From positions 34,025 through 98,024 of the forward strand of contig JAAXWR010000002.1 in the NCBI GenBank assembly GCA_013334825.1: 64,000 bases of DNA. Reading direction: 5' to 3'. This document shows, one piece after another, positions 3,934-50,075 of this stretch; within the stretch, counting starts at the first letter, position 1, and every line of letters begins with the position of its first letter. The notes under the pieces were generated by a model. The model was given only the letters and a program-made list of their open reading frames with translations, did no database searches and was not told the origin of the DNA. The DNA is from Candidatus Yonathbacteria bacterium. Its GTDB lineage: Bacteria > Patescibacteriota > Minisyncoccia > Phycocordibacterales > JACNGX01. Made by a program: the position numbers and the translations under genes.

Positions 3934-4542
3934 ATGTCCCACCCTAAAGAAGAACGCACACTTGTTATCATAAAACCCGATGGAGTTCAACGATCTTTGA
4001 TCGGCGAGATTATATGTCGATATGAGAGGGCGGGATTAAAGCTGGTTTCCCTTAAGATGGTTATTCCTGATGAGCAAATAGCAACCAATCATTACATGGT
4101 TGGTGGTGAGGAGTGGCTTGAAAATGTAGGAAAGAAGGCGACCGAAGCCTATGCTCGAAAGGGAGAGAAGCCCCCATTTGCAACACATCGTGAGAATGGT
4201 CTTGCTGTCCTCAAGTCTTGCTCAACATATCTCTCAGCTGGCCCCGTCATTCCGATGGTGTGGGAAGGAAATCAGGCAGTTGGTGTTGTGCGTAAGATTA
4301 CTGGTAGCACAGAACCACTTTCTTCTGATGTGGGAACAATTCGCGGTGATTTTACCGTTGATTCATATAAGATTGCAGATATGGCTCAACGCGCTGTGCG
4401 TAATCTCATCCATGCATCTGGTTCTGTAGAAGAAGCGGAAAAAGAAATTGCTATCTGGTTTAAGGAAAACGAAATAGTTTCGTATCGTCATTTGCAAGAA
4501 GCAATTCTTTATGATGTAAATCTTGATGGTATTATTGAGTAA
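3934..4542 (+). CDS. ndk: Nucleoside diphosphate kinase
   Basis: Canonical NDK N-terminus 'ERTLVIIKPDGVQRSLIGEII…' and active-site His context. A 10-bp perfect-stem terminator hairpin follows at 4572-4596. Confidence 0.9.
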   Translation: MSHPKEERTLVIIKPDGVQRSLIGEIICRYERAGLKLVSLKMVIPDEQIATNHYMVGGEEWLENVGKKATEAYARKGEKPPFATHRENGLAVLKSCSTYLSAGPVIPMVWEGNQAVGVVRKITGSTEPLSSDVGTIRGDFTVDSYKIADMAQRAVRNLIHASGSVEEAEKEIAIWFKENEIVSYRHLQEAILYDVNLDGIIE

Positions 4543-5086
4543 AAGAATAGAAAACAATTATAAACAACAACGGGACGGGGCGAAAGCCCCGTCCCGTATT
4601 CGTATGTTCCCTGTAGCACGTGGGGTGCAGGGCAAGCGTACAAGTTCGTACTTCGTAGCCCGTCTCTAGTACAGCGTAGGGTGCAGGGCAGGGCGTAATT
4701 TTTAATTCAGCATTCATAATTTATACACAGTTTCCTTTTTCTCATGTTGTATCGTGTGTTCGTTCTACGAACTAAGAACTACGAACTACGAACTTGTGTT
4801 CGTCCATGTTCCACTACACCAACTTTTCTCATGCTTGTCATGCTTGCGTATCTTTTTTCGAGAATTATACTGATAGGGGGTTGCTACGGGTATTTTCTAG
4901 GACAAATCGTTTTTTCAGGGAGTCCGATGTTACTGCGCGCTTTGGTGCGTATGTTCAGGACACCCACCTGGCAATACGCTAGGGAATGCCCGGTTTATGC
5001 AACCCCTCAAAAGTCGTCCATCGTTCTTTCCAAGAATGCTGGACGTTTTTTGTTTGTTCTTTTCTTTCCTGTGATATACTTGTTGT

Positions 5087-5533
5087 ATGAAACGCCCTCT
5101 CCTCGGCATTGTGATGCTTGCTCTCGTGTGGTTGATATTCATTTTGAATACTCTCGCATTTGAACATTATTGGTATTGGATATATGAATGGTTTGATATA
5201 CCAATGCATTTTTTGGGAGGATTTTGGGTTGGAGGAACTATTATATGGATACTCGGTACATTTCTTAAACGTCGTTTTGCGTCCACACGTGGCGGATATC
5301 TGTTATCTGTTGTGGGTCTTGCGATGGTCATCGGGCTTCTTTGGGAACTGTTTGAATTTAGTATTGATACGTTTATCACATTTCACATGAATGATATCAT
5401 TGATACGCTTTCTGACCTCTCGATGGATTTTTTGGGAGCAACGGTTGCGCACGTGCTTTTTTCTCGTCAAAAGGATACGCCTGCACTCACTCCCCATGAA
5501 GAATCATCTTCTGTTGATACGCTGTTGGGATAA
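5087..5533 (+). CDS. Hypothetical integral membrane protein (3-4 TM helices)
   Basis: Hydrophobic helices in the translation. No recognisable catalytic motif. Confidence 0.45.
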   Translation: MKRPLLGIVMLALVWLIFILNTLAFEHYWYWIYEWFDIPMHFLGGFWVGGTIIWILGTFLKRRFASTRGGYLLSVVGLAMVIGLLWELFEFSIDTFITFHMNDIIDTLSDLSMDFLGATVAHVLFSRQKDTPALTPHEESSSVDTLLG

Positions 5534-5556
5534 TATATTGGTATCATTATTTTTTT

Positions 5557-6930
5557 ATGTCTTCTACACTTACTCTTACGTTTGCCGGTGGCGCTGGTTC
5601 AGTTACTGGCGCAAATTTTCATCTCACTGATTCTGTGTCGGGTATGCAATGTCTTGTTGATTGTGGACTTTTTCAAGGTGCATCGACGTCACTTCCGAAA
5701 AATGTTGAACCGTTTTCATACGTTCCTGCTGATATCGCATTTCTTTTTGTTACACATAGTCATATGGATCATATTGGACGCATCCCGCGTCTCGTAAGAG
5801 AAGGATTTCATGGTGTTATCCGTTCCACTCCCGCGACGAAGGATCTTGCGTATGAGATGCTGAAAGATAGTTTGTCTGTGCTTCGCTCTGAACAACGGAA
5901 GACTGGCATCGAACCTCCCTATGATGATGAGGACATTGAAGGGGCAATGCGTTTATGGGAAGGTGTTGAATATCATCAAGACATACCTATTTCAGGTGGT
6001 CTTGTTGCTCGATTATATGATTCGGGACATATTCTCGGATCTGCTATGGTATCGTTCACGCGTGAAGGAAGAACACTGGTTATTACTGGTGATTTAGGCA
6101 ACTCTCCTGCACCTATAGTCCGTGATACGGAAGTATTGCCAGAGGCGCACTATCTGGTGATGGAAAGTGTGTATGGCGACCGTAACCATGAAGACCGCGA
6201 TGGTCGTACAGAACTGCTTCGTTCTCTCATCCTTGAAACAGTAGAAAAAAAGGGAACGCTTGTTATCCCCGCATTTTCTTTGGAGCGTACGCAAGATGTG
6301 CTTTTTGAAATCAATAATTTTGTCGAGTCGCATGCGATTCCCAATGTCCCCGTATTTATGGACTCACCGCTTGCAATACGGGTCACGTCTATTTATCGCA
6401 AATATGAACGCTATTATAATGCCGATGTAAAAAGTGTCATAAAGAGTGGTGATGATATTTTCAAATTCCCTCATTTGTCATTTACTGAAACCCGTGAAGA
6501 GTCGGAGCGTATTAATAGTATTCCGGGGCCGAAAGTAGTTATTGCGGGTTCTGGAATGTCCAATGGGGGACGTGTGCGTCATCATGAACGTCTGTATCTT
6601 CCTGATGCAAAGAACACGATTCTTCTTGTGGGGTACCAAGTACCAGGGTCGTTAGGACGACAGCTTCTTGAAGGTGCAAAAAAGGTGCGGATATTTGATA
6701 CTGAAGTACCTGTTCGTGCGCGTATTGCTTCAGTAAATGGATATTCAGCGCACAAAGATATGGATGGACTTATCGCCTTTGCTGCACAAGGAGCAAAAAC
6801 ACTAGAAAAAGTATTTGTGACACTTGGTGAACCGCGCTCTTCGATGTTTCTCGCGCAACGACTTCGTGATTATGCTGATCTCAATACGCATGTTCCTGAG
6901 GATGGTGAAACAGTAACACTCGCACTATAG
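5557..6930 (+). CDS. Metallo-beta-lactamase/beta-CASP family RNA-processing nuclease (CPSF/RNase J-like)
   Basis: MBL motif 'VTHSHMDHIG', beta-CASP region and C-terminal His motifs. At 457 aa it has no KH domains. Confidence 0.8.
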   Translation: MSSTLTLTFAGGAGSVTGANFHLTDSVSGMQCLVDCGLFQGASTSLPKNVEPFSYVPADIAFLFVTHSHMDHIGRIPRLVREGFHGVIRSTPATKDLAYEMLKDSLSVLRSEQRKTGIEPPYDDEDIEGAMRLWEGVEYHQDIPISGGLVARLYDSGHILGSAMVSFTREGRTLVITGDLGNSPAPIVRDTEVLPEAHYLVMESVYGDRNHEDRDGRTELLRSLILETVEKKGTLVIPAFSLERTQDVLFEINNFVESHAIPNVPVFMDSPLAIRVTSIYRKYERYYNADVKSVIKSGDDIFKFPHLSFTETREESERINSIPGPKVVIAGSGMSNGGRVRHHERLYLPDAKNTILLVGYQVPGSLGRQLLEGAKKVRIFDTEVPVRARIASVNGYSAHKDMDGLIAFAAQGAKTLEKVFVTLGEPRSSMFLAQRLRDYADLNTHVPEDGETVTLAL

Positions 6931-6949: not shown

Positions 6950-7525
6950 ATGAATGATACGCGTATCACGTCTCATACACAAAAACGTCCCACGATTTTT
7001 GTATCGGGACCATCTTCTTCGTGTGATGCTGACACGGCAGGGAAGGGACGTGCGCTTGGACATGCGATTGCACGTGGGCAAGCAATACTTTTGACAGGAA
7101 CGGGGAATGGTTTTGCGAGGTATGTTGCAGAAGGTGCAATGTCCGAAGGAGGAACGGTCATAGGACTATCACCCGCATCAAACGTTGAAGAACATACATC
7201 ATTGTATGGTCTTTCCACGTTGTATCACGATACTATTATATACACAGGATTTGGCTATGCGGGACGAGATATGCTTTTGTCGCGTTCAGCAGATGCCATG
7301 ATTGTGGGATCAGGTGATGTGGCACATGCATATGATATTATGCTTCTCCTCCATGAAAAGAAACCCTGTGGTGTACTTGAGGGACCATGGCTTCTTGATG
7401 ATACACTCAAAGAATTATTTACGCGTTCTGGGCGTACACGTGAGGGAATGGTGTTTTCGCCAGATTCAGAAACGCTTGTCACGCGAATACTCGAAGAGAT
7501 ACGCATGACGCGTATGCGCGCGTGA
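6950..7525 (+). CDS. TIGR00725/LOG-like Rossmann-fold protein
   Basis: Pattern 'IFVSGPSSS…GHAIARGQAILLTGTGNGFARYVAEGA…MIVGSGDVAHAYD' is typical of the LOG/TIGR00725 family. Confidence 0.55.
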   Translation: MNDTRITSHTQKRPTIFVSGPSSSCDADTAGKGRALGHAIARGQAILLTGTGNGFARYVAEGAMSEGGTVIGLSPASNVEEHTSLYGLSTLYHDTIIYTGFGYAGRDMLLSRSADAMIVGSGDVAHAYDIMLLLHEKKPCGVLEGPWLLDDTLKELFTRSGRTREGMVFSPDSETLVTRILEEIRMTRMRA

Positions 7526-7534
7526 GAAGTACCT

Positions 7535-8119
7535 ATGAACGATCTCGACCGTATTGCTGACGATATTCGTCTCTGTCACAAATGCCCATTGGCACAGACA
7601 CGCATATGTGCTGTCCCAGGAACAGGAAGTGGAAAAAGCGATATCGTCTTTATTGGTGAAGCTCCTGGTGCGCGTGAAGACCGTGAAGGATTGCCATTTA
7701 TTGGTGCTGCGGGGAAATTTCTTGATGAAATGCTTGCGGATATTGCGCTCTCTCGTGCCGATGTGTTTGTTACGAACGTCGTGAAATGTCGTCCACCGGA
7801 CAACCGTGACCCGCTTCCTGAAGAAGTGCGTATCTGCACAGAAGCATATCTCTGGAAACAGTTGGAAGTGCTCAAGCCAAAACTTCTCGTGCCACTTGGT
7901 CGGCATGCCATGCACCGTTTTCTCCCAGTAACAGAAAAAATAAGCGAGATACACGGCACGCCTGTTGGTATTACAAACCCTCTGTCAGGAGAGAAATATG
8001 TTGTTCTTCCGCTCTATCACCCCGCGGCAGCGCTCTATAACGGGAGTATGCGGGAAGTACTCAAGCGTGATTTTCGCGAAATACCGAAGATGATTGAAAA
8101 GATGAAATATGAAAAATGA
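7535..8119 (+). CDS. udg: Uracil-DNA glycosylase family 4 (Fe-S type)
   Basis: Motifs 'CHKCPL…', 'GEAPGAREDREGLPFIGAAGKFLDEML' and 'VVKCRPPDNRDP' match family-4 UDG. Confidence 0.85.
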   Translation: MNDLDRIADDIRLCHKCPLAQTRICAVPGTGSGKSDIVFIGEAPGAREDREGLPFIGAAGKFLDEMLADIALSRADVFVTNVVKCRPPDNRDPLPEEVRICTEAYLWKQLEVLKPKLLVPLGRHAMHRFLPVTEKISEIHGTPVGITNPLSGEKYVVLPLYHPAAALYNGSMREVLKRDFREIPKMIEKMKYEK

Positions 8120-9905: not shown

Positions 9906-10051
9906 GATATGGGGTGTTGATTGATAATACTGTAGATGATACTTCTGTATATAGTATATATCACGAAACATATCTACGCGCAATATGTTGAATGGTGATA
10001 CTATATACATATACTATGACAGTACGAGACACGCAGATATATAAGCGGAGT

Positions 10052-10939
10052 ATGCCATATATCCTGATAATCATTGTCGCGGGAGGTGCTTTTTTATGGG
10101 GGAGAAATACCGCACCTCCTCTTACTCTGCATGGAGACATTGCTTCACCAATTGATACAGATATATATGTTCCAACAGAAAACATAGCTTCTGTCGCTCC
10201 ACTCGATGATGTATTCATGACAGATAGTCTCGCAGATGAAACACCTGTTCTTGTGGAACATTCTTCTGTTGTATATCCTCACGTGCAGACAGATGAGCGT
10301 GTGTCCCATGAGACATATCGTGTTCTCTCTGTTGTTGATGGTGATACACTTACAGTGGATATGGACGGTGTGTCGCAGACACTTCGTTTGATAGGGCTTG
10401 ATACACCCGAGACGGTTGATCCACGCAAGCCGGTACAATGTTTTGGCAAAGAAGCCTCTCAGAAAGCAAAAAATGTTTTGACAGGAAAGCGTGTGCGTAT
10501 TGAGCGTGACGTAACGCAAGGTGTATATGACAAATATAATCGACTTCTTGCCTATGTGTTTTTGGAGGATGGAACATTTTTCAATGAAATGATGATTCGT
10601 GAAGGATATGGACATGAATATACGTATGCGACACCATATGCGTATCAAACACTGTTTCAGGAAGCAGAACATGATGCACGCGCAAACGGTAGAGGGCTGT
10701 GGGCAGTGGACGCATGCGCGGGAGACACAACGTCTCCACCCACACCAAGTGTAACAACCAGCGTAGTGGTATCTTCTACAACATCAGGATATACATGTGC
10801 TACGAATACCTATAATTGTACAGATTTTAGTACACAAATGGAGGCGCAACACGTATTTGAGGAATGTGGGGGAACAAACAATGATATACATCGTCTTGAT
10901 TCGGATAAAGACGGTCGTGTTTGTGAAAGTCTACCGTGA
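10052..10939 (+). CDS. Membrane-anchored thermonuclease (SNase-like) with a C-terminal Excalibur Ca-binding domain
   Basis: N-terminal TM anchor 'MPYILIIIVAGGAFLW'. SNase core 'VVDGDTLTV…IRLIGLDTPETVDP…CFGKEASQ…RLLAYVF…' is present. The C-terminal 'CTDFSTQMEAQHVFEECGG…DSDKDGRVCE' is an Excalibur-type motif. Confidence 0.8.
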   Translation: MPYILIIIVAGGAFLWGRNTAPPLTLHGDIASPIDTDIYVPTENIASVAPLDDVFMTDSLADETPVLVEHSSVVYPHVQTDERVSHETYRVLSVVDGDTLTVDMDGVSQTLRLIGLDTPETVDPRKPVQCFGKEASQKAKNVLTGKRVRIERDVTQGVYDKYNRLLAYVFLEDGTFFNEMMIREGYGHEYTYATPYAYQTLFQEAEHDARANGRGLWAVDACAGDTTSPPTPSVTTSVVVSSTTSGYTCATNTYNCTDFSTQMEAQHVFEECGGTNNDIHRLDSDKDGRVCESLP

Positions 10940-11046
10940 GAGGTAGATTTTCTAGAAACTACGCTATTGCACGTATTGTCTGTATGGTGTACAACAAGGG
11001 TAGTGTTTTTTGCAAGAACATATAATCCATAAAACAAAGGAAAAAG

Positions 11047-12402
11047 ATGATACAAGTAACAATGTTGGATTCCGGACCTACGTCTGCCGTTGAAGCGATT
11101 TCATTCGGCGCACTTGTGTGCTATCAGGGAGAGATTCCTGAATACGGCAAGAAAATTGATATCCAAAAACGTCTCTTTGAAACAGGGCACCATACGACAT
11201 TTCAACATACATACTGCTCATTCGTTATTGACGGTATTCCTGTTGGCAGTGTGACGTTCGGTCTCCATCTTCACCCGTTCTATAACACGGGACAACGGTC
11301 GGGGAGGTTCTGCTCGGGGATGTTCGCGAACCCGGATCTGGATGCGATACAAGAGTCAATCGCGACATTCTGGTCACTTGAAAAGGATGTTATGGCGGAA
11401 GTCATGGACTATGTCGCATCCGGCTTTGCTGTGTATGGAACATGGTTCGATCGTGCGAAAGAACTGACCGCGACGTATATACAGGAAGACCGCCCTTATG
11501 CTTCGGAGAAGTATGTGACGGCGAACGCGGAGAAGATAGCGCAGGAACAATTGCGCGTGTTTATTCCCGTGATATTTCCCACAGCTCTTGAGTACACTAT
11601 CAATCTATCCACACTTGCCGCGCTCTACGCAAGCGCATGGTCTCCTGTGTTACAGGATGTGACGAAACAGATGGCCGAGAGGGTGCTTGAGAAATGGCCT
11701 GAACTCTCATTCATGTTTGAAAGAGGAAGGAGATCTCTCAGTCATTTTTTCGTCTCCATGGATGATGATATTTATGACAAGAATGCCATTCTCTTTGACC
11801 CAGTCCTCAGCGTGCTTCATGTGGATGATGTTTCTGAAAGTGACATGTTCATTATTTCTGAAACGGACATGCACCCAATCAACCTCCTCCCGTTTTATCC
11901 CACATTCATGGAGTTTGATGTTGCAGAGTTAAAGACAGACGTTGAAATGTCTGTCGCGACACTCGGGCAGAAACAGCGACACAGGACTGTGCGAAGAAGT
12001 TTCCCGAGATTTACCGGGAACTTCTATCTCCCACCCGTTCCTCGCGGTTTGGGACTTGAAAGAGATGCCACACTTCTCATGGAGAAATGGATGTCACTTC
12101 GGATGAAGATACATTCGGACCTTTTCATGAATCTTGCACCGTATGGCGCAATGGTTAGATATCAGGAAATTGCTTCATTTAATTCAGCAATTCATGAAGG
12201 GGCGAAACGTCTGTGCTTATGCGCACAAGAGGAGATTTATCATCTCGCTCGTCAGGAGGAAGCACAGATTTCAAGTACTCCTTTGAGGAAATTTTTTGCT
12301 CCTCCGTGCATGGCGACAGGGAAGTGTGGTGAGGGGGTGCGGTACTGTGGCAGAGACCTCAAGAAACTGCCGGAGGATCCTTTTCCGAAACGGCGGGTAT
12401 GA
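11047..12402 (+). CDS. ThyX (flavin-dependent thymidylate synthase)-like fold protein with an altered dUMP-binding motif, fused to a roughly 235-aa Cys-containing C-terminal region
   Basis: The N-terminal 215 aa align with ThyX: 'HGHETPFEHxxFTFxVxGISRAxxxQxxRHRxxSYxxxSxRY' versus 'TGHHTTFQHTYCSFVIDGIPVGSVTFGLHLHPFYNTGQRSGRF'. RHR is replaced by HLH, and the S-G-R is kept. The C-terminal half has no recognisable homology, with several Cys near the end. Confidence 0.55.
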   Translation: MIQVTMLDSGPTSAVEAISFGALVCYQGEIPEYGKKIDIQKRLFETGHHTTFQHTYCSFVIDGIPVGSVTFGLHLHPFYNTGQRSGRFCSGMFANPDLDAIQESIATFWSLEKDVMAEVMDYVASGFAVYGTWFDRAKELTATYIQEDRPYASEKYVTANAEKIAQEQLRVFIPVIFPTALEYTINLSTLAALYASAWSPVLQDVTKQMAERVLEKWPELSFMFERGRRSLSHFFVSMDDDIYDKNAILFDPVLSVLHVDDVSESDMFIISETDMHPINLLPFYPTFMEFDVAELKTDVEMSVATLGQKQRHRTVRRSFPRFTGNFYLPPVPRGLGLERDATLLMEKWMSLRMKIHSDLFMNLAPYGAMVRYQEIASFNSAIHEGAKRLCLCAQEEIYHLARQEEAQISSTPLRKFFAPPCMATGKCGEGVRYCGRDLKKLPEDPFPKRRV

Positions 12403-12486
12403 TATCCTTTTTGTTAAGTGTTCATTCGTGTGATAACAGGTTCTTCGAGGGCCTGTTTTTTGTAAGAATATAGATACAAACAAAAA

Positions 12487-12504
12487 CGGCCCCGATGGGC
12501 CGTG
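12487..12504. terminator. Bidirectional terminator hairpin between convergent genes
   Basis: ACGGCCC-GATG-GGGCCGT stem-loop with flanking A and T runs. Confidence 0.55.
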
Positions 12505-12510: not shown

Positions 12511-13002
12511 TCACCTGTTTTTATGAAGGAACGCAAGGATGCGTTCTTTTTCAGGGTGTTGTTCCGCAATCCTGTAAAAGATGTACGGATTTTTGTAAAG
12601 GTCGAAGTACTCCTCAAGGAGTGCCACGGAGATTGTTCGACCTTTTTGTACGATACGAAACTCCACTTCTTTGAAATGCTCCTCTAACAGTTGTTCTGCG
12701 AATGGGATATCCGAAATAAAAAATAATGTTGATAATCCCATGGGGTATTTGCCCCATTCTCTGAGGCGTTCCTTAAGAGACATCAGACATATGTCGTAGT
12801 ATCTTGCGACATAGACAAATGCCAATGTCACTGTGCCGAGTGTCGGGATCCTTTCTTTGAGAAGTTCGATGATCCGCGCATCGCGCGTTCTCTCGTCTTC
12901 ATCAGGGAGAGGTTCCATGGCACCAAATAGCGTCTCCCATTCTTTTGCGTAGACGGCACCTATGCCTTCTTTTGAAAGGATACGACCATTGCTTGTTTCC
13001 AT
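12511..13002 (-). CDS. Hypothetical protein (163 aa)
   Basis: Intact ORF, convergent with the ThyX-like gene. No motif recognised. Confidence 0.45.
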   Translation of the reverse strand: METSNGRILSKEGIGAVYAKEWETLFGAMEPLPDEDERTRDARIIELLKERIPTLGTVTLAFVYVARYYDICLMSLKERLREWGKYPMGLSTLFFISDIPFAEQLLEEHFKEVEFRIVQKGRTISVALLEEYFDLYKNPYIFYRIAEQHPEKERILAFLHKNR

Positions 13003-13721: not shown

Positions 13722-13821
13722 CCAGCTCCACTTTCATAATAAACACACATGCTATGATAGATTTTTTATCCGAGACGTGAGTATTGTTTATAGATAAAGT
13801 CTTTTATGAAAGTGGGGCTGG
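13722..13821. repeat. 100-nt palindromic element with 16-nt terminal inverted repeats CCAGCTCCACTTTCAT / ATGAAAGTGGGGCTGG (copy 1 of 2)
   Basis: The same termini and the same 100-nt length recur at 58244-58343 with an unrelated interior. The termini resemble tmRNA/tRNA acceptor ends (…CCAGCUCCAC / GGGGCUGG…). Confidence 0.6.
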
Positions 13822-13834
13822 ATGCTCCTGGGCG

Positions 13835-13872
13835 CCGAGCACCACTTTTATAACGATAAAAGTGGTGCTCGG
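13835..13872. repeat. Hairpin repeat CCGAGCACCACTTTT-N8-AAAAGTGGTGCTCGG (family member 1 of 3)
   Basis: Near-identical stems recur at 59017-59052 and 60411-60447. All are adjacent to tRNA or tmRNA sequences. Confidence 0.6.
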
Positions 13873-13873
13873 T

Positions 13874-14186
13874 TCGATACCCCCACGCGAGCCGAGCAGT
13901 CGGCTCGCTCATCTCCACACGCAAAACAACAAACCACCCTTTCGGGTGGGTTGTTTTGGTGTGGAGATGGGGGGTATTGGTCAGGAGTCCGTGAAAATCA
14001 TAGTCGCTTTGCTCCTTGATTTTCTACGGCTCACGACCCTGGCTCGGCGACAAGCACTCGCACGCAAGCGTGCTCGTCTTGTGTACCGCCTCCGCCTTTC
14101 GATACCCCCAGCGAAAAGCTCGCTTTTCGCTTCACATCTCCAATCCATAAAAAAGAAACACCTCTTTAAAGAGGCGCTTCTTTTTT
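13874..14186. repeat. Array of tmRNA-terminus-like modules, each followed by an A-run/hairpin/T-run terminator. Modules: 13874-13921 + terminator 13922-13956; 3'-end copy 13957-13974; 14095-14136 + terminator 14150-14186
   Basis: The motif 'TTCGATACCCCC-A-[short hairpin]-CATCTCCA' occurs twice (its reverse complement is GGAGATG-[hairpin]-GGGGGTATCGAA). A second copy 'CCCCCCATCTCCACACCA' of the authentic tmRNA 3' end 'CCCCCCATCTCCACCA' lies 230 nt downstream of the real one. Confidence 0.5.
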
Positions 14187-14187
14187 A

Positions 14188-14605
14188 TGGTGGAGATGGG
14201 GGGTATCGAACCCCCGTCCAAACGTGGTTTGCGAGTGGGTCTACGCGATGTAGGTTGTTTTTTGGATTTGAACCGATTGTTTTTGAAACAAACAAAACGA
14301 CAATCAGTCGAGTTTCGTCGATTCTCGAGCGTCTGATGAAACGGTCAGATGCTCCAGTCCGATGAGTATGACACCCTCTCAGACATATCGGACGTCAGAA
14401 GAGAGGACGCCGCTTAGGCGAATCGAGACACGAGGTCTTGATTAGGCGAAAGCGGGAGCGAAGGACGGTATTCCAAAGTAGGAAGAGGCAATACCTTTTG
14501 CTTTAAGAGACAAGTTCGCACTTATCGTTTGTGACGGTTTTACGAGTCATCACAGCTCGATCGCGCGCACGGGCAGAGACACGCCTGTCGAAGCCGATCA
14601 TCCCC
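14188..14605 (-). ncRNA. ssrA: tmRNA (ssrA), standard one-piece, 418 nt
   Basis: Minus-strand 5' end 'GGGGAUGAUCGGCUUCGACAGGCG' matches the conserved tmRNA 5' acceptor strand and GGnUUCGAC element. The 3' end 'GGACGGGGGUUCGAUACCCCCCAUCUCCACCA' has a T-arm, a 7-nt acceptor strand complementary to the 5' end (one G·U pair) and an encoded CCA, followed by a terminator. The gene lies immediately downstream of and co-oriented with smpB. A candidate tag ORF after '…CUCUUAAA' is GCA AAA GGU … GCC UAA, giving AKGIASSYFGIPSFAPAFA*. The tag is low confidence. Confidence 0.7.
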
Positions 14606-14670: not shown

Positions 14671-15114
14671 TTATTCATCTTTCAAAGATCGACGCATTTC
14701 ACGTTCTGCTTCACGCTTTTTGATAGTTTCGCGTTTGTCGAACTGTTTTTTACCACGTCCGATAGCGACTTCCACCTTGAGAAACTTATGTTTATTATAC
14801 ACTGAAAGTGGGATAACTGTCAATCCATTGGTAGATTCAGCGTCGGAGAGTTGTGCGATTTCTTTTTTGGACAAAAGAAGCCGTCGTGTCCGCGCGGGGT
14901 CATAGGACAGAGGAGTATTGACACTTTGATAGGGCGGTATGGTCATACCGACAATATATGCTTCACCTCCACGCACGAGAACGTGGGCACCTTCAAGTGA
15001 CCCCCTCCCGCCACGAAGAGACTTTACTTCAAAACCGTGCAAATCCAAGCCCGCCTCAAATTTCTCAAGGATGTCATAATCAAAATGTGCTTTTTTGTTC
15101 CGTATCAGAGACAT
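14671..15114 (-). CDS. smpB: SsrA-binding protein SmpB
   Basis: '…KKAHFDYDILEKFEAGLDLHGFEVKSLRGGRGSLEGAHV…' is canonical SmpB. Confidence 0.9.
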   Translation of the reverse strand: MSLIRNKKAHFDYDILEKFEAGLDLHGFEVKSLRGGRGSLEGAHVLVRGGEAYIVGMTIPPYQSVNTPLSYDPARTRRLLLSKKEIAQLSDAESTNGLTVIPLSVYNKHKFLKVEVAIGRGKKQFDKRETIKKREAEREMRRSLKDE

Positions 15115-38057: not shown

Positions 38058-38768
38058 ATGTCTCTCGAACTCATTCCAGCCATTATTCCTGAAAGTCTCG
38101 ATGATTTATCGCGTAAACTTTCTCTTGTTGAGGGTCTTGTTCCTGTTGTCCAAATTGATATGGTAGACGGTATCTTTGCGCCCCATGCGCGCAAAAGTTG
38201 GCCGTTTGCTGACGTGAATGGTATGGGGGAGTTTCGTCGGATCGGTGCAGAAGAAGACGGACTTCCTTTTTGGGATAGCTTTTTCTTTGAAGCAGATCTT
38301 ATGGTGCGAGAACCAGAACGTATGCTTGAAGATATTATTGCGGCAGGTTTTGGTCGTGTTGTTGTTCATTTGGGAAGCACAGAGCAATTTCGTGATATTG
38401 TTGAACGTCTTCGCGCGTTTGATGTAGAGACAGTTATCGCGCTCTCTCTTGAGGATGATCCCGCAGATATCGAAATCTACGCGGATGATATTGATGCAAT
38501 ACAGTGCATGGGTATTAGCCGTATCGGTGCACAAGGACAACAGACGGATGAACGTATCTATGAACGTGTGTCCACATTGCGAGCAATGTACCCTGACCGT
38601 ATAATAAGTGTAGATGGTGGCGTAACGCTTGCGAATGCGTCACTTCTTATCGGAGCTGGTGCTGACCGACTTGTATCAGGTTCGGCAGTGTTTGGTGCTG
38701 ACGACATAGGAAAAGCAATTGCTGATTTTTACACGATTGAGGACCGAAGCGAAGAACTTTTTTCATGA
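38058..38768 (+). CDS. rpe: Ribulose-phosphate 3-epimerase-like TIM-barrel protein
   Basis: '…VQIDMVDGIF…' and the C-terminal 'ISVDGGVTLANASLLIGAGADRLVSGSAVFGADD' match RPE signature regions. I take the start at ATG 38058. Confidence 0.7.
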   Translation: MSLELIPAIIPESLDDLSRKLSLVEGLVPVVQIDMVDGIFAPHARKSWPFADVNGMGEFRRIGAEEDGLPFWDSFFFEADLMVREPERMLEDIIAAGFGRVVVHLGSTEQFRDIVERLRAFDVETVIALSLEDDPADIEIYADDIDAIQCMGISRIGAQGQQTDERIYERVSTLRAMYPDRIISVDGGVTLANASLLIGAGADRLVSGSAVFGADDIGKAIADFYTIEDRSEELFS

Positions 38769-39628
38769 AACCTCTTACTGATGACAATGTACGCGATCTC
38801 ACAGAGCGTGCTCGTGCGATACGCGAAAGTATTATCGACATGCTTCTTTCTGCTGGGTCTGGACATACCGCGGGACCTTTGGGGATGGCGGATATTTTCG
38901 CGCTCATGTATTTTCATGTGTTGCGTCACAAGCCAAAAGATCCGTTGTGGTCTGCACGTGATAGAGTCATTCTTTCCAATGGACATATTTGTCCAGTGTT
39001 GTACGCGACCATGGCACATGCGGGATATTTCCCTGTGCAAGAATTGACTACATTACGCGCATTTGGTTCGCGTTTGCAAGGACATCCTCATCGTGAATGG
39101 CTACCAGGAATTGAGACAAGTTCGGGACCACTTGGCTCTGGACTTTCACAAGCGATTGGTATGGCGCTCGCCGAACGTATGGACAGAGGGCGTGCGAGTG
39201 ACACGTATTTTTATGTGTTTATGGGTGATGGGGAACTTGACGCGGGACAAGTATGGGAAGCGGTGATGCTTGCCGGTAAAGAACGTCTTGCCAATATCTT
39301 GGTTATTATTGACCGCAACAATATTCAAATTGATGGATATACATGGGATGTGATGCCACTTGAGCCACTCTACGAAAAATGGGAGAGTTTTAATTGGCAG
39401 GTACAAGAAGTCGATGGGCACAACTTTGAAGCAATGAATGACGCTATTGGTAAAGCACAGTCCGCATATGGTATGCCGTCAGTTATCATCGCGCATACAA
39501 TTCCTGGGAAAGGAGTAGATGGATTTGAGAAAGATTATACATGGCATGGGAAACCACCAAATAAAGAAGAAGCAACACGCGCGCTTGAAGAATTGCGAAC
39601 GCTGGGAGGAAAAATAGCCGAAGATTAA
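38765..39628 (+). CDS. tktN: Transketolase, N-terminal (thiamine-diphosphate-binding) subunit
   Basis: 'GHTAGPLGMADIFALMY…SNGH…GSGLSQAIGMA…FMGDGELDAGQVWEA' is the TPP-binding half of transketolase. Confidence 0.9.
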   Translation: MKPLTDDNVRDLTERARAIRESIIDMLLSAGSGHTAGPLGMADIFALMYFHVLRHKPKDPLWSARDRVILSNGHICPVLYATMAHAGYFPVQELTTLRAFGSRLQGHPHREWLPGIETSSGPLGSGLSQAIGMALAERMDRGRASDTYFYVFMGDGELDAGQVWEAVMLAGKERLANILVIIDRNNIQIDGYTWDVMPLEPLYEKWESFNWQVQEVDGHNFEAMNDAIGKAQSAYGMPSVIIAHTIPGKGVDGFEKDYTWHGKPPNKEEATRALEELRTLGGKIAED

Positions 39629-39820: not shown

Positions 39821-40228
39821 ATGGATATCATCACCCAAAAAACTGAAGAACCAATTATTATTCTTGAGACAGAAACTACTTCTTCGCTTACTCCACCGAT
39901 TTCCTACGATGATTTTATGTCTGTTGATATTCGTGTTGGCACTATTATTGAAGCGAGTTTGTTTCCTGAAGCGCGCAAGCCGATGCATAAATTCGTGATT
40001 GATTTTGGCCAGGATATCGGTCTCCGTCGCTCATGTGGACAAATTACTCAAAACTACACCCCTGAACAATTGGTGGGCAAGCAAGTTTTAGGTGTGGTGA
40101 ATTTTCCTGAGAAACAAATCGGTCCCTATGTATCGCAAGCACTCACCTTAGGGTTTCGTGACTTTGAGAACGGTGTTGTCTTGGTAACACCAGAACATGC
40201 AGTGCCAAATGGAGAACGGTTGATGTAA
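39821..40228 (+). CDS. tRNA-binding domain protein (CsaA/Trbp111/EMAP-like OB fold)
   Basis: '…VDIRVGTIIEA…HKFVIDFGQDIGLRRSCGQITQNYTPEQLVGKQVLGVVNFPEKQIG' matches the Myf/CsaA tRNA-binding domain. Confidence 0.7.
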   Translation: MDIITQKTEEPIIILETETTSSLTPPISYDDFMSVDIRVGTIIEASLFPEARKPMHKFVIDFGQDIGLRRSCGQITQNYTPEQLVGKQVLGVVNFPEKQIGPYVSQALTLGFRDFENGVVLVTPEHAVPNGERLM

Positions 40229-40312: not shown

Positions 40313-40669
40313 ATGCAGTACGATCTTGAAAACAGAACAAAAATTTTTAGCAAGGAGGTGATTATGTTCTTAAAACGTTTACAGAAGGATGAAATAAATA
40401 GACATATCATTTCTCAACTTGTTCGTTCGGCGACTAGTGTCGGTGCGAATTATTGTGAAGCAAATGGTGCTAGTTCACAGAGAGATTTCAAACATAAAAT
40501 ATTTATCTGTAGAAAGGAAATTCAAGAAACAAAATATCGGTTAGAATTAATTGCAGAATCGAATAAAGACGAAAAAGATAGTGTTGAAAAATTATGGAAA
40601 GAAGCTCATGAATTAACTCTCATTTTTAATAAAATATCAACAACACTAAGGGAACGCACTGAAAAATAA
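40313..40669 (+). CDS. Four-helix-bundle protein (TIGR02436; the '23S rRNA intervening-sequence protein' family)
   Basis: '…EINRHIISQLVRSATSVGANYCEANGASSQRDFKHKIFICRKEIQETKYRLELI…' is the family signature. Confidence 0.8.
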   Translation: MQYDLENRTKIFSKEVIMFLKRLQKDEINRHIISQLVRSATSVGANYCEANGASSQRDFKHKIFICRKEIQETKYRLELIAESNKDEKDSVEKLWKEAHELTLIFNKISTTLRERTEK

Positions 40670-40786: not shown

Positions 40787-41776
40787 ATGTTTACCCCTTC
40801 TCTCAAATTAAATCCAAATCTTTTTGCCGATACCATTGAGCGTGTACCGACGCGCTTTGGTTTCGGTGATGGACTGGTTTTAGCAGGAAAGAAAAACACG
40901 CGCGTGGTTGCGTTGTGTGCCGATTTGACTGCATCTACCAAGATGGATGGATTTGCAAAAGCGTTTCCTGAAAGATTTATACAGATGGGGATTGGAGAGC
41001 AGTCTATGGCGAGTGTTGCTTCGGGACTTGCAGCAGCGGGAAAGATTCCGTTTTTTGCTTCGTATGCAATGTTTTCTCCAGGACGTAATTGGGAGCAGAT
41101 CCGTACAACGATTTGCTATAATAATGTGAATGCAAAAGTGGTTGGCGCACATGCAGGTGTGTCGGTGGGTCCCGACGGAGGAACACATCAAGCGATTGAA
41201 GATATTGCACTTATGCGTGTTATTCCGCATATGACTGTTGTGGTGCCATGTGACGCACACGAAGCACACAGAGCAACGCTCGCCCTTGCGGAATACAATG
41301 GACCGGCGTATCTTCGTTTGACACGTGAACCAACGCCTCTCATGACGACTTCCGATACGCCTTTTGCTATCGGTAAAGCGCAGATTTTCTTCGAACCAAA
41401 GCGCGGAGTAAAAAAGACTATTGGTATCATTGGAGCGGGACCAGTCTTATATGAAGCACTCTTGACAGCAAAGGATTTGGAGGGAGAAGGTATTGGTGTA
41501 TCAGTTATGAATCTTGCAACCATTAAACCACTTGATGAAGAAGCGGTGCTTTCGTTTGCCAAAGCACATAAAGCGCTCGTGACTGTTGAAGAACATCAAA
41601 TTGCTGGCGGGCTCGGATCAACGATTGCGGAATATCTCTCATCCGTGTATCCAATGCATATTGTGCGTATTGGTGTACGCGATGCCTTTGGTCAATCGGG
41701 TACACAAAAAGAACTCATCGCGCACTATGGAATGGATAAAGAAAGTATCAAACGTGAAATACGGAATGTGAAATAA
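40787..41776 (+). CDS. tktC: Transketolase, C-terminal (pyrimidine-binding plus C-terminal domain) subunit
   Basis: '…GIGEQSMASVASGLAAAGKIPFFASYAMF…HAGVSVGPDGGTHQAIEDIALMRVIP…' is the Pyr-binding half. Confidence 0.9.
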   Translation: MFTPSLKLNPNLFADTIERVPTRFGFGDGLVLAGKKNTRVVALCADLTASTKMDGFAKAFPERFIQMGIGEQSMASVASGLAAAGKIPFFASYAMFSPGRNWEQIRTTICYNNVNAKVVGAHAGVSVGPDGGTHQAIEDIALMRVIPHMTVVVPCDAHEAHRATLALAEYNGPAYLRLTREPTPLMTTSDTPFAIGKAQIFFEPKRGVKKTIGIIGAGPVLYEALLTAKDLEGEGIGVSVMNLATIKPLDEEAVLSFAKAHKALVTVEEHQIAGGLGSTIAEYLSSVYPMHIVRIGVRDAFGQSGTQKELIAHYGMDKESIKREIRNVK

Positions 41777-42116: not shown

Positions 42117-42791
42117 CTAATGTGCTACCGCATACGCTTTTACTTCTCGTGCGCCTGCGGCGCGGAGAGTTTTGCGCGCTTCCGCTATTGTTGCTCCTGT
42201 TGTGGTGACATCATCGATAAGGATAACCGTTCTTCCTATAATGCGTGATGAATGAGATACAGTAAATGCGTCGATGAGGTTTCGTAATCGCTCACTTTTG
42301 TTTGCAAGCGACATTTGTGGTTTTGTGTCACGGGTTTTTATAAGGATATCGGTTGCAAGTACAAGATTTGAATCAGAAAAAGAAGTAACAAGAGCGCGTG
42401 CAATGTCTTCAGTATGATTGTATCCGCGTGTCTTTAGTCGTGCGCGAGAAAGGGGTATAGGTATGACGAGCATTTCTTCGTTACTGCCGACAAGCGACTC
42501 TTCTGCTATATCCTCTGCAATCATGTCATAGAGCGCTTCTGCACATACGGGTGCGACGGCGCGAATTCCTTCGTATTTAAGATTCCAAATGATCCGATGT
42601 ACCGTAGGGTGTCTATACGACCATACGGCGCGCACTTCTTTGTCGGCAGAGGGTTCAGCAGGAGGGATAGACGCTCGACAAGTATCACATAAAAAGGTCC
42701 CAATTTTTCCACAACCAGTACATTGTGATGGAAACAATGCTTCGCATATAAAATTTATGATAGGGCGTATTACGTTTTTGGTCAGTTCCAT
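42117..42791 (-). CDS. comFC: ComF family protein (ComFC-like phosphoribosyltransferase domain), competence-associated
   Basis: N-terminal Cys4 zinc finger 'CTGCGKIGTFLCDTC', and a PRTase motif 'VILIDDVTTTGAT'. It diverges from pilM, with a TATAAT box for pilM at 42795-42800. Confidence 0.8.
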   Translation of the reverse strand: MELTKNVIRPIINFICEALFPSQCTGCGKIGTFLCDTCRASIPPAEPSADKEVRAVWSYRHPTVHRIIWNLKYEGIRAVAPVCAEALYDMIAEDIAEESLVGSNEEMLVIPIPLSRARLKTRGYNHTEDIARALVTSFSDSNLVLATDILIKTRDTKPQMSLANKSERLRNLIDAFTVSHSSRIIGRTVILIDDVTTTGATIAEARKTLRAAGAREVKAYAVAH

Positions 42792-42810
42792 GGTATAATC
42801 ATCGCATAGT

Positions 42811-43959
42811 ATGGCTGATATATTCAAACAACTCACAGGGGATTTCTTTAAGAAAAAAGCGGAAAGCGTTATTGGTGTTGATATTGGTTCAGCGTTTATA
42901 AAAGTTGTTCAATTAAAAAAGAAAAATGGAAAGGCTATTCTTGAAACATATGGTGAGCTTGCGCTTGGTCCATATGGTGGTGTGGCCGTTGGGCAGGCAA
43001 CACAACTTCCTCCAGAAAAGATTGCTGAAGCGCTTGCTGATGTTATACGCGAAGCAAATATTACAACAAAAAACGCCGGTCTTTCATTGCCACTTCAGTC
43101 AAGCCTCCTTTCATTTATGAAGATGCCACCGCTTGATGATAAGAAACTTGCTGAGATGATTCCTATTGAAGCAAGAAAATATATTCCTGTTCCAGTATCT
43201 GAAGTATCTTTGGATTGGTGGATTCTTCCAAAAAGAGAAGAGGATGTCATGCTCGGAGGAGTTCCGTCTATGCCTGGAGCAATAAAAGGTGTTTCACCGA
43301 AAGAAGATAAACAGCTTATTGATGTGCTCGTCGTCGCGATTTTGAATGAGACGATTCATGATTTTCGCGATGTTGTCGCTCGTGCAGCATTTGAAAATGC
43401 ATTTTTTGAATTAGAAGTATTTAGTACGGCGCGAAGTACTTTTGGTGCTAGTGCGTCTCCTGTGATGGTCATTGATATGGGTGCACGAACGACAAAAATT
43501 TCTATCCTTGAATACGGTATTATTCGTGCACAGCATATCGTTAATAGGGGATCTCAAAATATTACTGTTGCCATTGCGGATTCTGTCGGTGTTCCTGTTG
43601 AGCGTGCAGAACAATTAAAAAGAGAGTTCGGCCTTCTTGGTACAGGGAAAGAAGGACATATCACTGAGACAGCGCAGCTTGTCGTTGACCATGTTCTCAA
43701 TGAGGCAGAAGCAGTTCTCCTTAATTATGAACGGACACACAATAGAATGATTAAACATATCGTTCTTACTGGAGGGGGTGTTCTTTTGAAAGGGTTGTAC
43801 GAAGCAGCAGATAAAGCGTTTGAGACAGAAGTGACATATGCAGACCCATTTAAAAAGACTGAAGCCCCTGCTTTTCTTAAGCCAGTACTTAGTGATGCAG
43901 GTCCCGAATTTGCAGTTGCTGTTGGTCTTGCCCTCCGAAAACTCGAAGAACAAGAATAG
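42811..43959 (+). CDS. pilM: Type IV pilus assembly protein PilM (actin-like ATPase)
   Basis: 'VIGVDIGSAFIKVVQL…' N-terminus and an FtsA-like fold. Confidence 0.85.
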   Translation: MADIFKQLTGDFFKKKAESVIGVDIGSAFIKVVQLKKKNGKAILETYGELALGPYGGVAVGQATQLPPEKIAEALADVIREANITTKNAGLSLPLQSSLLSFMKMPPLDDKKLAEMIPIEARKYIPVPVSEVSLDWWILPKREEDVMLGGVPSMPGAIKGVSPKEDKQLIDVLVVAILNETIHDFRDVVARAAFENAFFELEVFSTARSTFGASASPVMVIDMGARTTKISILEYGIIRAQHIVNRGSQNITVAIADSVGVPVERAEQLKREFGLLGTGKEGHITETAQLVVDHVLNEAEAVLLNYERTHNRMIKHIVLTGGGVLLKGLYEAADKAFETEVTYADPFKKTEAPAFLKPVLSDAGPEFAVAVGLALRKLEEQE

Positions 43960-44039
43960 TCTTGGTTGGTTTCTTCCTCAATCCACATTTTTCTGCTTTC
44001 TTTCCTTTCTAAAAAAGTGCATAATAATGATATTGTTAT

Positions 44040-44636
44040 ATGGTCACGGCTTCTCAAACATCATTCATCCCCAAGCAATCGTTTGATCAGGTGAAGAAAA
44101 AACGTAACACAGGGACATGGTTACTCGTCTCTCTCTCTGGGTTTGTGTTAGCTCTTTCTCTTGTTGCTGCTGCCGGTGTATTTTTTTATGAGCGTATGCT
44201 TACAACGGATGTTGCTGACATGCGAGACCGTCTTGAGCGCATGCGTTCAGCGTTTGAACCTACACTTGTACAAGAATTAAAGCGTCTTGATGAACGTCTG
44301 AGTACGCTCAATGCGGTGTTGGGAGGGCATGTTGCTTTTTCAGAATTTTTTTCTGTTCTTGAACAAAATACATTGCAGACTGTACGCTTTCGTCAGTTTA
44401 CTTATCAAATGAATACAGAAAATGGAGCGGAAGTTACCCTCTCTGGAGAAGCAACAAGTTATTCTTCCGTTGCATTACAATCAGACGTCTTTGGAAAGAA
44501 CCGTTATTTTCATGATCCTATATTTTCTGATATGACATTGGACAATAAGGGAAATGTAACATTTAATGTGACATTTATTCTTGATGATGAACTTATCAAG
44601 TATGATGTAGCGGATGCAGTAAATATTTCTTCTTAA
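44040..44636 (+). CDS. pilN: PilN-like pilus assembly protein
   Basis: Single N-terminal TM then a coiled-coil/periplasmic region. Its position after pilM fits. Confidence 0.65.
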   Translation: MVTASQTSFIPKQSFDQVKKKRNTGTWLLVSLSGFVLALSLVAAAGVFFYERMLTTDVADMRDRLERMRSAFEPTLVQELKRLDERLSTLNAVLGGHVAFSEFFSVLEQNTLQTVRFRQFTYQMNTENGAEVTLSGEATSYSSVALQSDVFGKNRYFHDPIFSDMTLDNKGNVTFNVTFILDDELIKYDVADAVNISS

Positions 44637-44641
44637 ATTGT

Positions 44642-45178: not shown

Positions 45179-45183
45179 ACAAT

Positions 45184-45561: not shown

Positions 45562-45610
45562 TATCTTGTTAAATGATATGTAGTGTCGTTGCGTAGAGAC
45601 TTTTCCTCTT

Positions 45611-47329: not shown

Positions 47330-47358
47330 AAGATATAAATATAGAGTATACTACTCAT

Positions 47359-47766: not shown

Positions 47767-47939
47767 ATAAAAATACCCATAAATCGACGTTTATTGATAA
47801 AAAGTGGATAACTAATCCACACCCATTGTTCTTTTTGTTATCATTTTGTTATAATAAAATGGCTTCAAACGCAGCAAGGCGTGTGGGCTTTTATCAATAG
47901 GTCGTTATTCGTTTTAATCAAATTTTATCCTTATATCTT

Positions 47940-48422: not shown

Positions 48423-48508
48423 GAAACATCTTTGAACATGATAATAGGGATTTTTCCCACAGTCAAAAACCTCCGCTTACGGAGGTTTTTGGTGTATACT
48501 ATATAAAC

Positions 48509-49348: not shown

Positions 49349-49358
49349 CAGATATAGT

Positions 49359-50057: not shown

Positions 50058-50075
50058 TATAAAATTTTATATACT

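Follow-up and report, generated by a model that had tools for sequence, protein, structure and literature searches.

A tandem ThyX-family protein from Candidatus Yonathbacteria whose active-site signature is completed only across two fused domains

Sequence comparisons suggest that a 451-aa protein, encoded in a 64-kb window (the whole stretch of DNA analyzed here) of a Candidatus Yonathbacteria MAG, is a tandem ThyX of a Patescibacteria-wide family and, most likely, the flavin-dependent thymidylate synthase of the cell, converting dUMP to dTMP. The residues of the ThyX signature are distributed over its two domains and form a complete set only when both are considered together. The tandem ThyX is a common and already-annotated enzyme of Patescibacteria; its fused design and its four invariant Cys residues are unstudied in the literature that we searched.

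The locus and its signals

The two genes described in the first-pass annotation are both present in the window: an upstream ORF at 9992–10939 (+ strand, 315 aa), which codes for a nuclease, and, after the reported gap of 107 bp, an ORF at 11047–12402 (+ strand, 451 aa), which the gene call, the Pfam matches and the family alignment together identify as a tandem, two-domain thyX. The NCBI models differ from these at the 5′ ends, with the nuclease gene starting at 10016 (307 aa) and the thyX gene at an ATG 15 nt downstream, the latter yielding a product of 446 aa recorded as “hypothetical protein HGA48_00970”. For thyX we favor the start at 11047, because the first residues, MI[KQ]V, are conserved in the family alignment. 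Direct reading of the intergenic sequence reveals a ribosome-binding-site-like AAGGA 5 nt before the thyX ATG (11037–11041, +) and a TATAAT hexamer (11021–11026, +); a promoter scan of the same gap recovered no full sigma-70-type site, and no terminator was predicted between the two genes. On the far side, two terminator-like hairpins (12435–12457 on the + strand and 12486–12503, readable on both strands) lie between thyX and a convergent gene coding for a 163-aa protein. Genes for type IV pili and competence are present in the window as well.

An N-terminal ThyX domain devoid of the RHR arginines

The ThyX-like identity originally proposed for the 451-aa protein is borne out by its match to the Pfam Thy1 model (PF02511; 52.7 bits against a cut-off of 24.8), which spans aa 16–216, and by a profile–profile comparison with canonical ThyX (95% probability, E 3.8e-8). 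A search of the whole-length protein against PDB sequences returned only an E of 0.64 to the M. tuberculosis ThyX. The N-terminal domain occupies aa 1–223 (11047–11715, +), and the motifs GHHTTFQH (aa 47–54) and SGRF (aa 85–88), as well as the Cys strings pointed out earlier, are all found in the sequence. The first of these, G47-H48-H49-T50-T51-F52-Q53-H54 (11185–11208, +), is the counterpart of T. maritima G52-H53-E-T55-P-F-E58-H59, with H48 conserved in all and T50 in 189 of the 191 distinct family proteins on which our conservation counts are based. In canonical ThyX, H53 and T55 are the flavin-stacking His and the FAD-phosphate-binding Ser/Thr, furnished by the “third” subunit (PMC11940539, PMC6514825). 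The second, the substrate loop S85-G86-R87-F88-C89 (11299–11313, +), equates with T. maritima S88-G89-R90-Y91: the Ser and the final Arg of the motif are indeed retained, as first claimed (S85 in 191/191 and R87 in 189/191 members), whereas position 88 is F or Y in 187/191, with Phe as the Y91 counterpart in 117/191 members, including the window protein, and C89 is seen in 159/191. N80 is kept as the counterpart of T. maritima N85. Further downstream, R170 (11554–11556, +; 191/191 members) corresponds to T. maritima R147 (M. tuberculosis R172), an Arg that binds the dUMP phosphate in canonical ThyX (PMC12004180).

The stretch in which the RHR triad would be expected, aa 64–84 (IPVGSVTFGLHLHPFYNTGQR; 11236–11298, +), has no Arg or Lys before R84, while its G72 and H74 are invariant; across the family, aa 64–83 are free of any Arg or Lys in 190/191 members. 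The replacement of RHR by HLH inferred at first thus stands insofar as both Arg residues are absent from this domain, but the register that equates HLH with RHR is not fixed: depending on the alignment, the triad falls on G72-L73-H74, L73-H74-L75, H74-L75-H76 or L75-H76-P77. The best-supported register, obtained via the long-form relatives described below (98.9% probability), places L73-H74-L75 on R78-H79-R80, so that the central His would be kept. The role assigned to the two missing arginines, namely binding of the dUMP phosphate, was likewise imprecise: in M. tuberculosis ThyX the RHR binds the phosphate and ribityl moieties of FAD, the first of its two Arg residues being the one in contact with the isoalloxazine and dUMP (PMC6514825).

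The C-terminal half as a second ThyX domain

A poorly conserved inter-domain linker (aa 224–252; 11716–11802, +), modeled with low confidence (pLDDT 61–75), leads to the C-terminal 235 aa. These had been taken for a novel Cys-rich half; the structural model and the long-form relatives instead identify in them a second ThyX-fold domain (about aa 253–410; 11803–12276, +), with an intact and invariant RHR at 311–313. Pfam, too, reports two stretches in the polypeptide, in keeping with two ThyX-fold domains in one chain. The link of this half to ThyX was made through structure and through the long forms, a set of 485–560-aa proteins that the C-half profile retrieves with E-values between 1e-10 and 1e-15: hhalign matches the C-halves of the short and long forms with 99.3% probability, and the long-form C-domain has a strong Pfam Thy1 match. 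A profile–profile comparison between the N- and C-halves gave no signal, and the C-half profile found no ThyX among PDB sequences and nothing when compared with the canonical ThyX profile; the internal duplication is too old for direct detection. Residue by residue, the C-domain is aligned to canonical ThyX on local motifs and secondary-structure register, with no significant direct profile alignment.

Two motifs anchor this alignment. Q308-K-Q310-R311-H312-R313 (11968–11985, +) combines the counterpart of Q75 with the RHR that follows it, the half of the ThyX signature that binds FAD; R311 and R313 are found in 191/191 members, H312 and Q308 in 190/191, and all four are also invariant in the long forms. 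The other, R388-L-C390-L-C392 (12208–12222, +), contains R388, the equivalent of the uracil-binding Arg of ThyX (T. maritima R174, M. tuberculosis R199). Both R388 and C390 occur in every member and C392 in 150/191, the two Cys sitting at the positions of canonical D176 and H178. The pattern R-x4-A-Q-x-E-I around R388 is common to the canonical LRADSHAQWEI, and in the model R388 lies at the end of a helix that follows a long strand, as in the ThyX fold. With R388 assigned by local motif and secondary-structure register, the equivalents of H53, R147 and R174 (H48, R170 and R388) are each present in 191/191 members.

We also considered whether entries that cover the C-half only (230–250 aa) represent split genes and rejected this: they look like truncated gene calls, because the three that were read all begin at the invariant internal M209 and one of them clusters with a 446-aa member.

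A signature split between two domains

The contiguous RHRxxSxxxxSxR is found in neither domain: the N-domain has S85-G-R87 without an RHR, and the C-domain has R311-H-R313 without the SxR[Y] loop. The residues lost by each domain are those kept by the other. Specifically, the C-domain retains RHR 311–313, Q308 and R388, matching T. maritima R78-H79-R80, Q75 and R174, while the N-domain retains H48, T50, N80, S85-G86-R87-[F/Y]88 and R170, matching H53, T55, N85, S88-G89-R90-Y91 and R147. It is only across both domains that the signature becomes complete, and this holds for the 191-member alignment and for the long forms. The latter, with at least 7,630 matches, come from several bacterial phyla and an archaeon and display the same invariants as the 191-member family; in the alignment that includes them (A4), the shared residues are C25, H48, T50, H74, S85, R87 and R170 of the N-domain, and Q310, R311, H312, R313, R388, C390, C421, C427 and C434 of the C-domain. 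One long form has an intein inserted in the N-domain substrate loop, a kind of site that inteins favor.

In the canonical tetramer, three subunits contribute to one active site: A provides the RHR and R174, B provides H53/T55, and C provides the S88/R90/Y91 loop (PMC6514825, PMC11940539). We propose that in the fusion the C-domain would play role A and the N-domains roles B and C, such that a C2 dimer would amount to a pseudo-tetramer in which two active sites are complete and two are dead, and each chain would have one FAD and one dUMP site. Because the C-domain supplies exactly the residues that the N-domain has lost, the altered N-domain motif is best seen as a division of labor in a fused pseudo-heterodimer. 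The original suggestion that it signals a different substrate or a non-catalytic role finds no support once the C-domain, with its RHR 311–313, Q308 and R388, is recognized as a second ThyX domain. It could be argued that the loss of the RHR from the N-domain killed catalysis and left a protein with some other role, such as a regulator or a sensor of nucleotides or flavin, given that neither domain by itself bears the full signature. We find this barely credible: the catalytic and ligand-binding residues are kept in 189–191 of the 191 members and are exactly complementary across the domains, this complementary conservation extends across phyla and to a virus, and the gene belongs to a dTMP-pathway cluster.

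The Cys-rich tail and a putative metal site

Beyond the second ThyX domain lies the Cys-rich tail, C421-x5-C427-G-E429-G-x-R-x-C434-G-R436 (12307–12354, +), whose three Cys are present in 191/191 members. The long-form relatives from bacteria and archaea keep all three without exception, as does a viral homologue. Along with C390 these three Cys make up a set of four Cys that is invariant in 191/191 members and in the 485–560-aa long forms from many phyla, and this suggests a putative metal site, for which a structural Zn would be more likely than an Fe-S cluster. With C390 placed two residues after the uracil-binding Arg and the other three Cys in the tail, such a metal would anchor the tail to the active-site helix.

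Alternatively, C390, C421, C427 and C434 might bind a redox-active [4Fe-4S] cluster beside the flavin, with FAD being reduced by ferredoxin or flavodoxin instead of NAD(P)H, or with a role in redox or O2 sensing. In canonical ThyX, the loop corresponding to that of C390 bears D176/H178 close to the flavin; nevertheless, we judge this option rather doubtful. If it were true, the tandem-ThyX clade would be a metal-dependent, half-of-the-sites class of thymidylate synthases that is now filed as ordinary ThyX, and thousands of proteins from many phyla would fall into this new class.

Genomic context and the likely function

In 36/80 species genomes, the family gene has a thymidylate kinase and/or dCMP deaminase gene at most 5 kb away, mostly adjacent and co-oriented; of the 43 loci with full flanks, 22 show this proximity. 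The recurrent neighbors are dCMP deaminase, small P-loop kinases, thymidylate kinase and MazG; at some loci the family gene is located beside the thymidylate kinase gene or between those for dCMP deaminase, the P-loop kinases, thymidylate kinase and MazG. The viral homologue of the tandem ThyX is located in a replication module. The association with dTMP-pathway genes is not seen in the present 64-kb window: neither Pfam scans of 60 window ORFs nor the precomputed Pfam matches for genes called over window positions 1062–22402 contained a folate enzyme, thymidylate kinase or dCMP deaminase. Likewise, E. coli ThyA and T. maritima ThyX, used as tblastn queries, detected no ThyA or second ThyX in the window.

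Several features count against reading the protein as a working ThyX. It scores 37.3 bits against the equivalog model TIGR02170, below the cut-off of 87.9, which probably explains the “hypothetical protein” label of the NCBI record; T. maritima R165 (M. tuberculosis R190) has no Arg counterpart in either domain; R74 (M. tuberculosis R87) has none in the short form; and there is the above-mentioned Phe at the Y91 position. The low TIGR02170 score and the Phe of many members, in conjunction with an extra Q-R pair ahead of S85, could also be accommodated by a neofunctionalized ThyX paralogue that modifies UMP, as PolB does, or else dCMP or a pyrimidine that already bears a modification. We hold this to be clearly unlikely, since the dUMP-contacting residue types of the M. 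tuberculosis and H. pylori ThyX are, with both domains counted, all present except R87, the frequent neighbors include the maker of dUMP (dCMP deaminase) and the user of dTMP (thymidylate kinase), the near-universal presence of the family in streamlined genomes fits an essential housekeeping function better than a specialized one, and no second thymidylate synthase is seen in the window. In the literature that we searched, no enzymatic, cofactor or oligomer data were found for any tandem ThyX.

The upstream gene (9992–10939, +) had been described as coding for a surface nuclease with SNase and Excalibur domains. The SNase domain is firmly recovered (PF00565; 86.4 bits, gathering cut-off 21) and a hydrophobic helix at the N-terminus is consistent with a membrane anchor, whereas the Excalibur match is borderline (PF05901; 21.5 bits against a cut-off of 22). 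The further notion that this nuclease and the ThyX-like protein are co-expressed and functionally coupled in a dedicated DNA-scavenging module derives some appeal from the arrangement of the two genes, which share a strand and are separated by 107 bp devoid of any predicted terminator, from the type IV pilus and competence genes in the window, and from the dependence on nucleotide salvage that is thought to characterize Patescibacteria. Yet none of the 80 other genomes has an SNase gene within 5 kb of its family gene; the nearest other Yonathbacteria genome (L004) preserves synteny around the locus, but there the upstream position is taken by an unrelated gene for a 312-aa protein; and the TATAAT and ribosome-binding-site-like sequence in the 107-bp gap imply that thyX may have its own transcript. 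We also entertained the idea of a conserved nuclease partner masked by divergence and rejected it, as the L004 upstream gene has no similarity to the nuclease. We infer that the nuclease is an incidental neighbor, not a conserved partner, of thyX, and regard a scavenging module as very improbable. Thus, the recurrence of dTMP-pathway neighbors (36/80) against the lack of nuclease neighbors (0/80) favors a working thymidylate synthase as the most likely function, over both a nuclease module and a new-substrate enzyme.

Implications

The literature searched portrays ThyX as a homotetramer with four identical sites, and the enzyme is an antibacterial drug target. If the reading of the tandem protein as a thymidylate synthase is correct, many of the proteins annotated as ThyX, forming a very large group with a wide distribution, would be fused pseudo-heterodimers, with active-site residues subdivided between the two copies of the fold, probably only half the sites in use, and a conserved four-Cys putative metal site. 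They would offer a clean natural case of an oligomeric enzyme whose genes fused and whose copies then degenerated in complementary ways. The recognition of such enzymes from sequence would also have to change, as both the contiguous signature and TIGR02170 fail, leaving some of them “hypothetical”, and the dTMP branch of Patescibacteria metabolism would be filled in. [quoted passage not shown]

Comparison with known systems

The upstream neighbor shares its SNase domain with the staphylococcal-type thermonucleases that carry an Excalibur domain, scores 120 bits against NCBIfam NucI, under the 250-bit cut-off, and has a C-terminal Excalibur-like Ca-binding motif; it differs from the staphylococcal type in adding an N-terminal membrane anchor and a Ser/Thr-rich linker. 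PolB, the UMP/dUMP C5-methylase of Streptomyces cacaoi (PDB 4P5A), is a single-domain homotetramer encoded in the polyoxin antibiotic gene cluster, whereas the loci of the tandem family are dTMP-pathway clusters.

With the canonical homotetrameric ThyX/FDTS (T. maritima TM0449, 1O26 and 5CHP; M. tuberculosis Rv2754c, 2AF6 and 3GWC; H. pylori, 3AH5), the fusion shares the equivalents of H53, RHR, S88/R90, R147 and R174, as well as the expected chemistry and pathway context. Unlike these, it comprises two diverged copies of the fold in one chain, completes the signature only across the copies, is predicted to have two sites per pseudo-tetramer in place of four, bears an extra Cys-rich tail, with four invariant Cys in all, and scores under the TIGR02170 cut-off. 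The ThyX of Chlamydia trachomatis, of about 529 aa, has reportedly been studied kinetically. Our literature searches covered fused, duplicated and tandem ThyX, Fe-S or zinc in ThyX, the ThyX of Patescibacteria, and Chlamydia CT632, and they returned only a remark by Valas and Bourne in 2009 on a domain-duplicated, uncharacterized ThyX in Chloroflexi (PMC3224940).

A further parallel is the long-form duplicated ThyX of 485–560 aa from Armatimonadota, Acidobacteriota, Verrucomicrobiota, Sumerlaeia, Thermoplasmatota and others, which has the same two-domain design, the same split of the motif and the same four Cys. Relative to it, the Patescibacterial form is 70–100 aa shorter, with a shorter inter-domain insert and an identity of 23–27%; its N-domain lacks the SRQ (R74/Q75-like) element, which has been lost, and has SGR in place of SQR, and there is usually a second Cys in a CxC arrangement.

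A two-domain ThyX

Both genes of the pair are real open reading frames: the first (9992–10939, plus strand) codes for a 315-aa protein and the second (11047–12402, plus strand), across a gap of 107 bp, for one of 451 aa. NCBI places the starts downstream of those of the longest ORFs, by 24 nt for the former (10016, 307 aa) and by 15 nt for the latter (11062, 446 aa); for the latter, the family-wide N-terminus MI[KQ]V favors the upstream ATG at 11047. The ThyX-like character that the first-pass annotation ascribed to the N-terminal region of the 451-aa protein is borne out by a Pfam Thy1 match over residues 16–216 (52.7 bits against a cut-off of 24.8) and by the alignment of its family profile with the canonical ThyX profile at 95% probability. 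The protein does not reach the NCBIfam equivalog TIGR02170 (37.3 vs 87.9), which probably accounts for the label “hypothetical” on its record.

The C-terminal half, previously described as novel, gave no match in direct sequence comparison with the N-terminal half, PDB sequences or the canonical profile, and on its own reaches Thy1 weakly (16.4 bits, E 0.008, profile positions 54–181); modelled alone, it has a pLDDT of 83 and a pTM of 0.83. It aligns at 99.3% probability (E 6.6e-21) with the C-terminal half of longer relatives of 485–560 aa, where this region is itself a strong Thy1 match. Thus, there is very little doubt that the 451-aa protein is a tandem ThyX, i.e., a ThyX–ThyX fusion, and the claim of a novel half mostly falls away.

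Division of active-site residues between the two domains

We used as reference the T. maritima ThyX sequence, which matches the PDB chain cluster with 100% identity. The C-domain bears Q308-x-Q310-R311-H312-R313 directly after the helix following the central strand, as in ThyX, and R388 where the helix after the long strand ends, in the context K-R-L-C-x-C-A-Q-E-E-I vs the canonical L-R174-A-D-S-H-A-Q-W-E-I. Across 191 distinct members of the Patescibacterial short-form family, R311, R313 and R388 are invariant and H312 is found in 190. This domain has nothing corresponding to H53, to the S88-G-R90-Y91 loop or to R147 (T. maritima numbering), and the N-domain holds exactly that set: H48 and R170 (each 191/191), T50, N80 and S85-G86-R87-[F/Y]88 (S85 in all 191, G86 and R87 in 189 each). 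The N-domain in turn lacks the RHR motif and the R174 counterpart, with A197 at the latter position.

The reported replacement of RHR by HLH stands as regards the loss, since 190 of the 191 members have neither Arg nor Lys between I64 and R84; the exact register does not, as four alignments yield GLH, LHL, HLH or LHP. The best-supported register, obtained via the long-form relatives (98.9% probability), places L73-H74-L75, with its invariant H74, on R78-H79-R80. The altered substrate proposed on this basis is mostly unsupported, since the RHR lost from the N-domain is present in the C-domain.

In one M. tuberculosis/H. pylori ThyX site, subunit A gives RHR and R199 (T. maritima R174), subunit C gives R87, S105, R107 and Y108 (the latter three being T. 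maritima S88, R90 and Y91), and subunit B gives S71 and R190 (PMC6514825); T. maritima H53, which stacks on flavin and folate, lies on the third monomer (PMC11940539). Hence, the two halves of the fusion keep precisely the two sets that are given in trans. We infer that the C-domain would take role A and the N-domains roles C and B, such that two fusion chains, paired as a C2 dimer, would mimic the D2 tetramer with two complete and two degenerate sites; each 451-aa chain would then account for a single FAD site and a single dUMP site. We regard this arrangement of two live and two dead sites as somewhat favored.

Conserved cysteines

C390, two residues past the uracil-binding R388, is invariant in the family together with C421, C427 and C434, while C25 is seen in 189, C89 in 159 and C392 in 150 of the 191 members. 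The four invariant cysteines and C25 are also invariant in the long forms from several bacterial phyla and a Thermoplasmatota archaeon, and in a viral homologue. This pattern argues for a putative metal site fastening the tail to the active-site helix, and the sequence would suit Zn and an Fe-S cluster equally; our literature search turned up no ThyX described as containing a metal.

Genomic context and function

The first gene's 315-aa product is a staphylococcal-type nuclease with a membrane anchor (Pfam SNase, 86.4 bits; Excalibur slightly short at 21.5 bits against a cut-off of 22; NCBIfam NucI below its cut-off at 120 bits). The proposed module of this nuclease with ThyX was not borne out: none of 80 genomes has an SNase gene near its family gene, and in the nearest other Yonathbacteria genome an unrelated 312-aa protein is encoded directly upstream of thyX. 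Synteny is otherwise kept there both upstream (LOG-like, UDG, L20, L35, IF3) and downstream (a 163-aa convergent gene, SmpB, FtsH). The intergenic gap has no terminator but does hold a TATAAT hexamer and the sequence AAGGA, which resembles a ribosome-binding site; co-transcription of the two genes in the source organism is possible. A ComFC-like protein (42117–42836, minus strand) is followed by a type IV pilus/competence cluster with PilM, PilO, a T2SSE ATPase, a response regulator, a prepilin peptidase and several N-methyl pseudopilins (whole region 42117–51719); with the surface nuclease, this region fits DNA uptake and scavenging, although thyX is 30 kb away.

Several further features were noted in the window. 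The 163-aa gene (12511–13002, minus strand), without Pfam or NCBIfam matches, is a lineage-specific neighbor of thyX; another Yonathbacteria genome conserves it in the corresponding place (35% identity, E 2e-25). Upstream lie genes for an NDK (3934–4542), a beta-CASP/RMMBL nuclease (5557–6930), and a LOG/SLOG-like protein (6950–7525) and a family-4-type uracil-DNA glycosylase (7535–8119), the latter pair being syntenic in the other Yonathbacteria genome. A tmRNA gene (14188–14605, minus strand; Rfam 131.9 bits; tag peptide ANLSLKAKGIASSYFGIPSFAPAFA) adjoins SmpB (14671–15114, minus strand) and explains an “ORF-free” stretch, including a spurious 193-aa ORF at 13784–14365. The transketolase is split into N-terminal (38765–39628) and C-terminal (40787–41776) genes, between which lie genes for a tRNA_bind protein (39821–40228) and a “23S rRNA-intervening sequence protein” (40313–40669).

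Pfam searches of 60 window ORFs, and precomputed Pfam matches for the genes over 1062–22402, recovered no folate enzyme, thymidylate kinase or dCMP deaminase. In other genomes, a thymidylate kinase gene lies 19 bp upstream of the family gene, or the cluster reads P-loop kinase, dCMP deaminase, P-loop kinase, tandem ThyX, thymidylate kinase and MazG. Of 80 species-representative genomes, 36 have thymidylate kinase and/or dCMP deaminase within 5 kb, and these dTMP-pathway neighbors, mostly adjacent and co-oriented, recur in 22 of the 43 loci with full flanks. A 149-kb viral contig (IMG/VR UViG_3300038673_000220) encodes a 455-aa tandem ThyX (5001–6365 of locus L090; 32% identical) with the same split motifs and cysteines, neighbored by a PolB-type exonuclease-domain protein and a divergent DnaB-like helicase. 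An 840-aa long-form metagenomic protein (P0359) carries a bona fide intein (Intein_splicing, 49 bits) in its N-domain, between ...YYN and EQASQRY, within the retained substrate loop. We count the pathway neighbors, the viral homologue, the intein and the lack of ThyA or a second ThyX within the 64-kb window toward a working thymidylate synthase; the 451-aa protein likely makes dTMP.

Family extent and relationship to known ThyX proteins

Clustered at 90% identity, the tandem family falls into at least 740 groups (about 100 at 50%), and it spans many Patescibacterial lineages; matches to the related long form number at least 7,630. Many MAGs with the Patescibacteria-type gene bear record titles that name Gammaproteobacteria, Rickettsiales, Alphaproteobacteria or Bdellovibrionales (loci L016, L021, L025, L043 and L066 among them). 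Automatic mislabeling of bins with small genomes probably accounts for these titles, though this type of gene may also occur genuinely outside Patescibacteria. A reading of three “C-half only” entries (P0241, P0244 and P0254; 230–241 aa) as split genes was set aside: all start at the invariant internal Met209 (MA[DE]xV...PEL) and one falls into the same 90% cluster as a 446-aa protein, so they look like truncated gene calls.

The name “FAD-dependent thymidylate synthase” is already attached to many family members. Within this large, annotated family, the gene for the 451-aa protein is an ordinary one. PDB searches returned no tandem ThyX structure, and the homotetramer is the sole ThyX form in the reviews found. 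An uncharacterized ThyX with a duplicated domain was noted in 2009 in Chloroflexi and “a few other species” (PMC3224940); the tandem family represents a structurally distinct, unstudied variant of ThyX.
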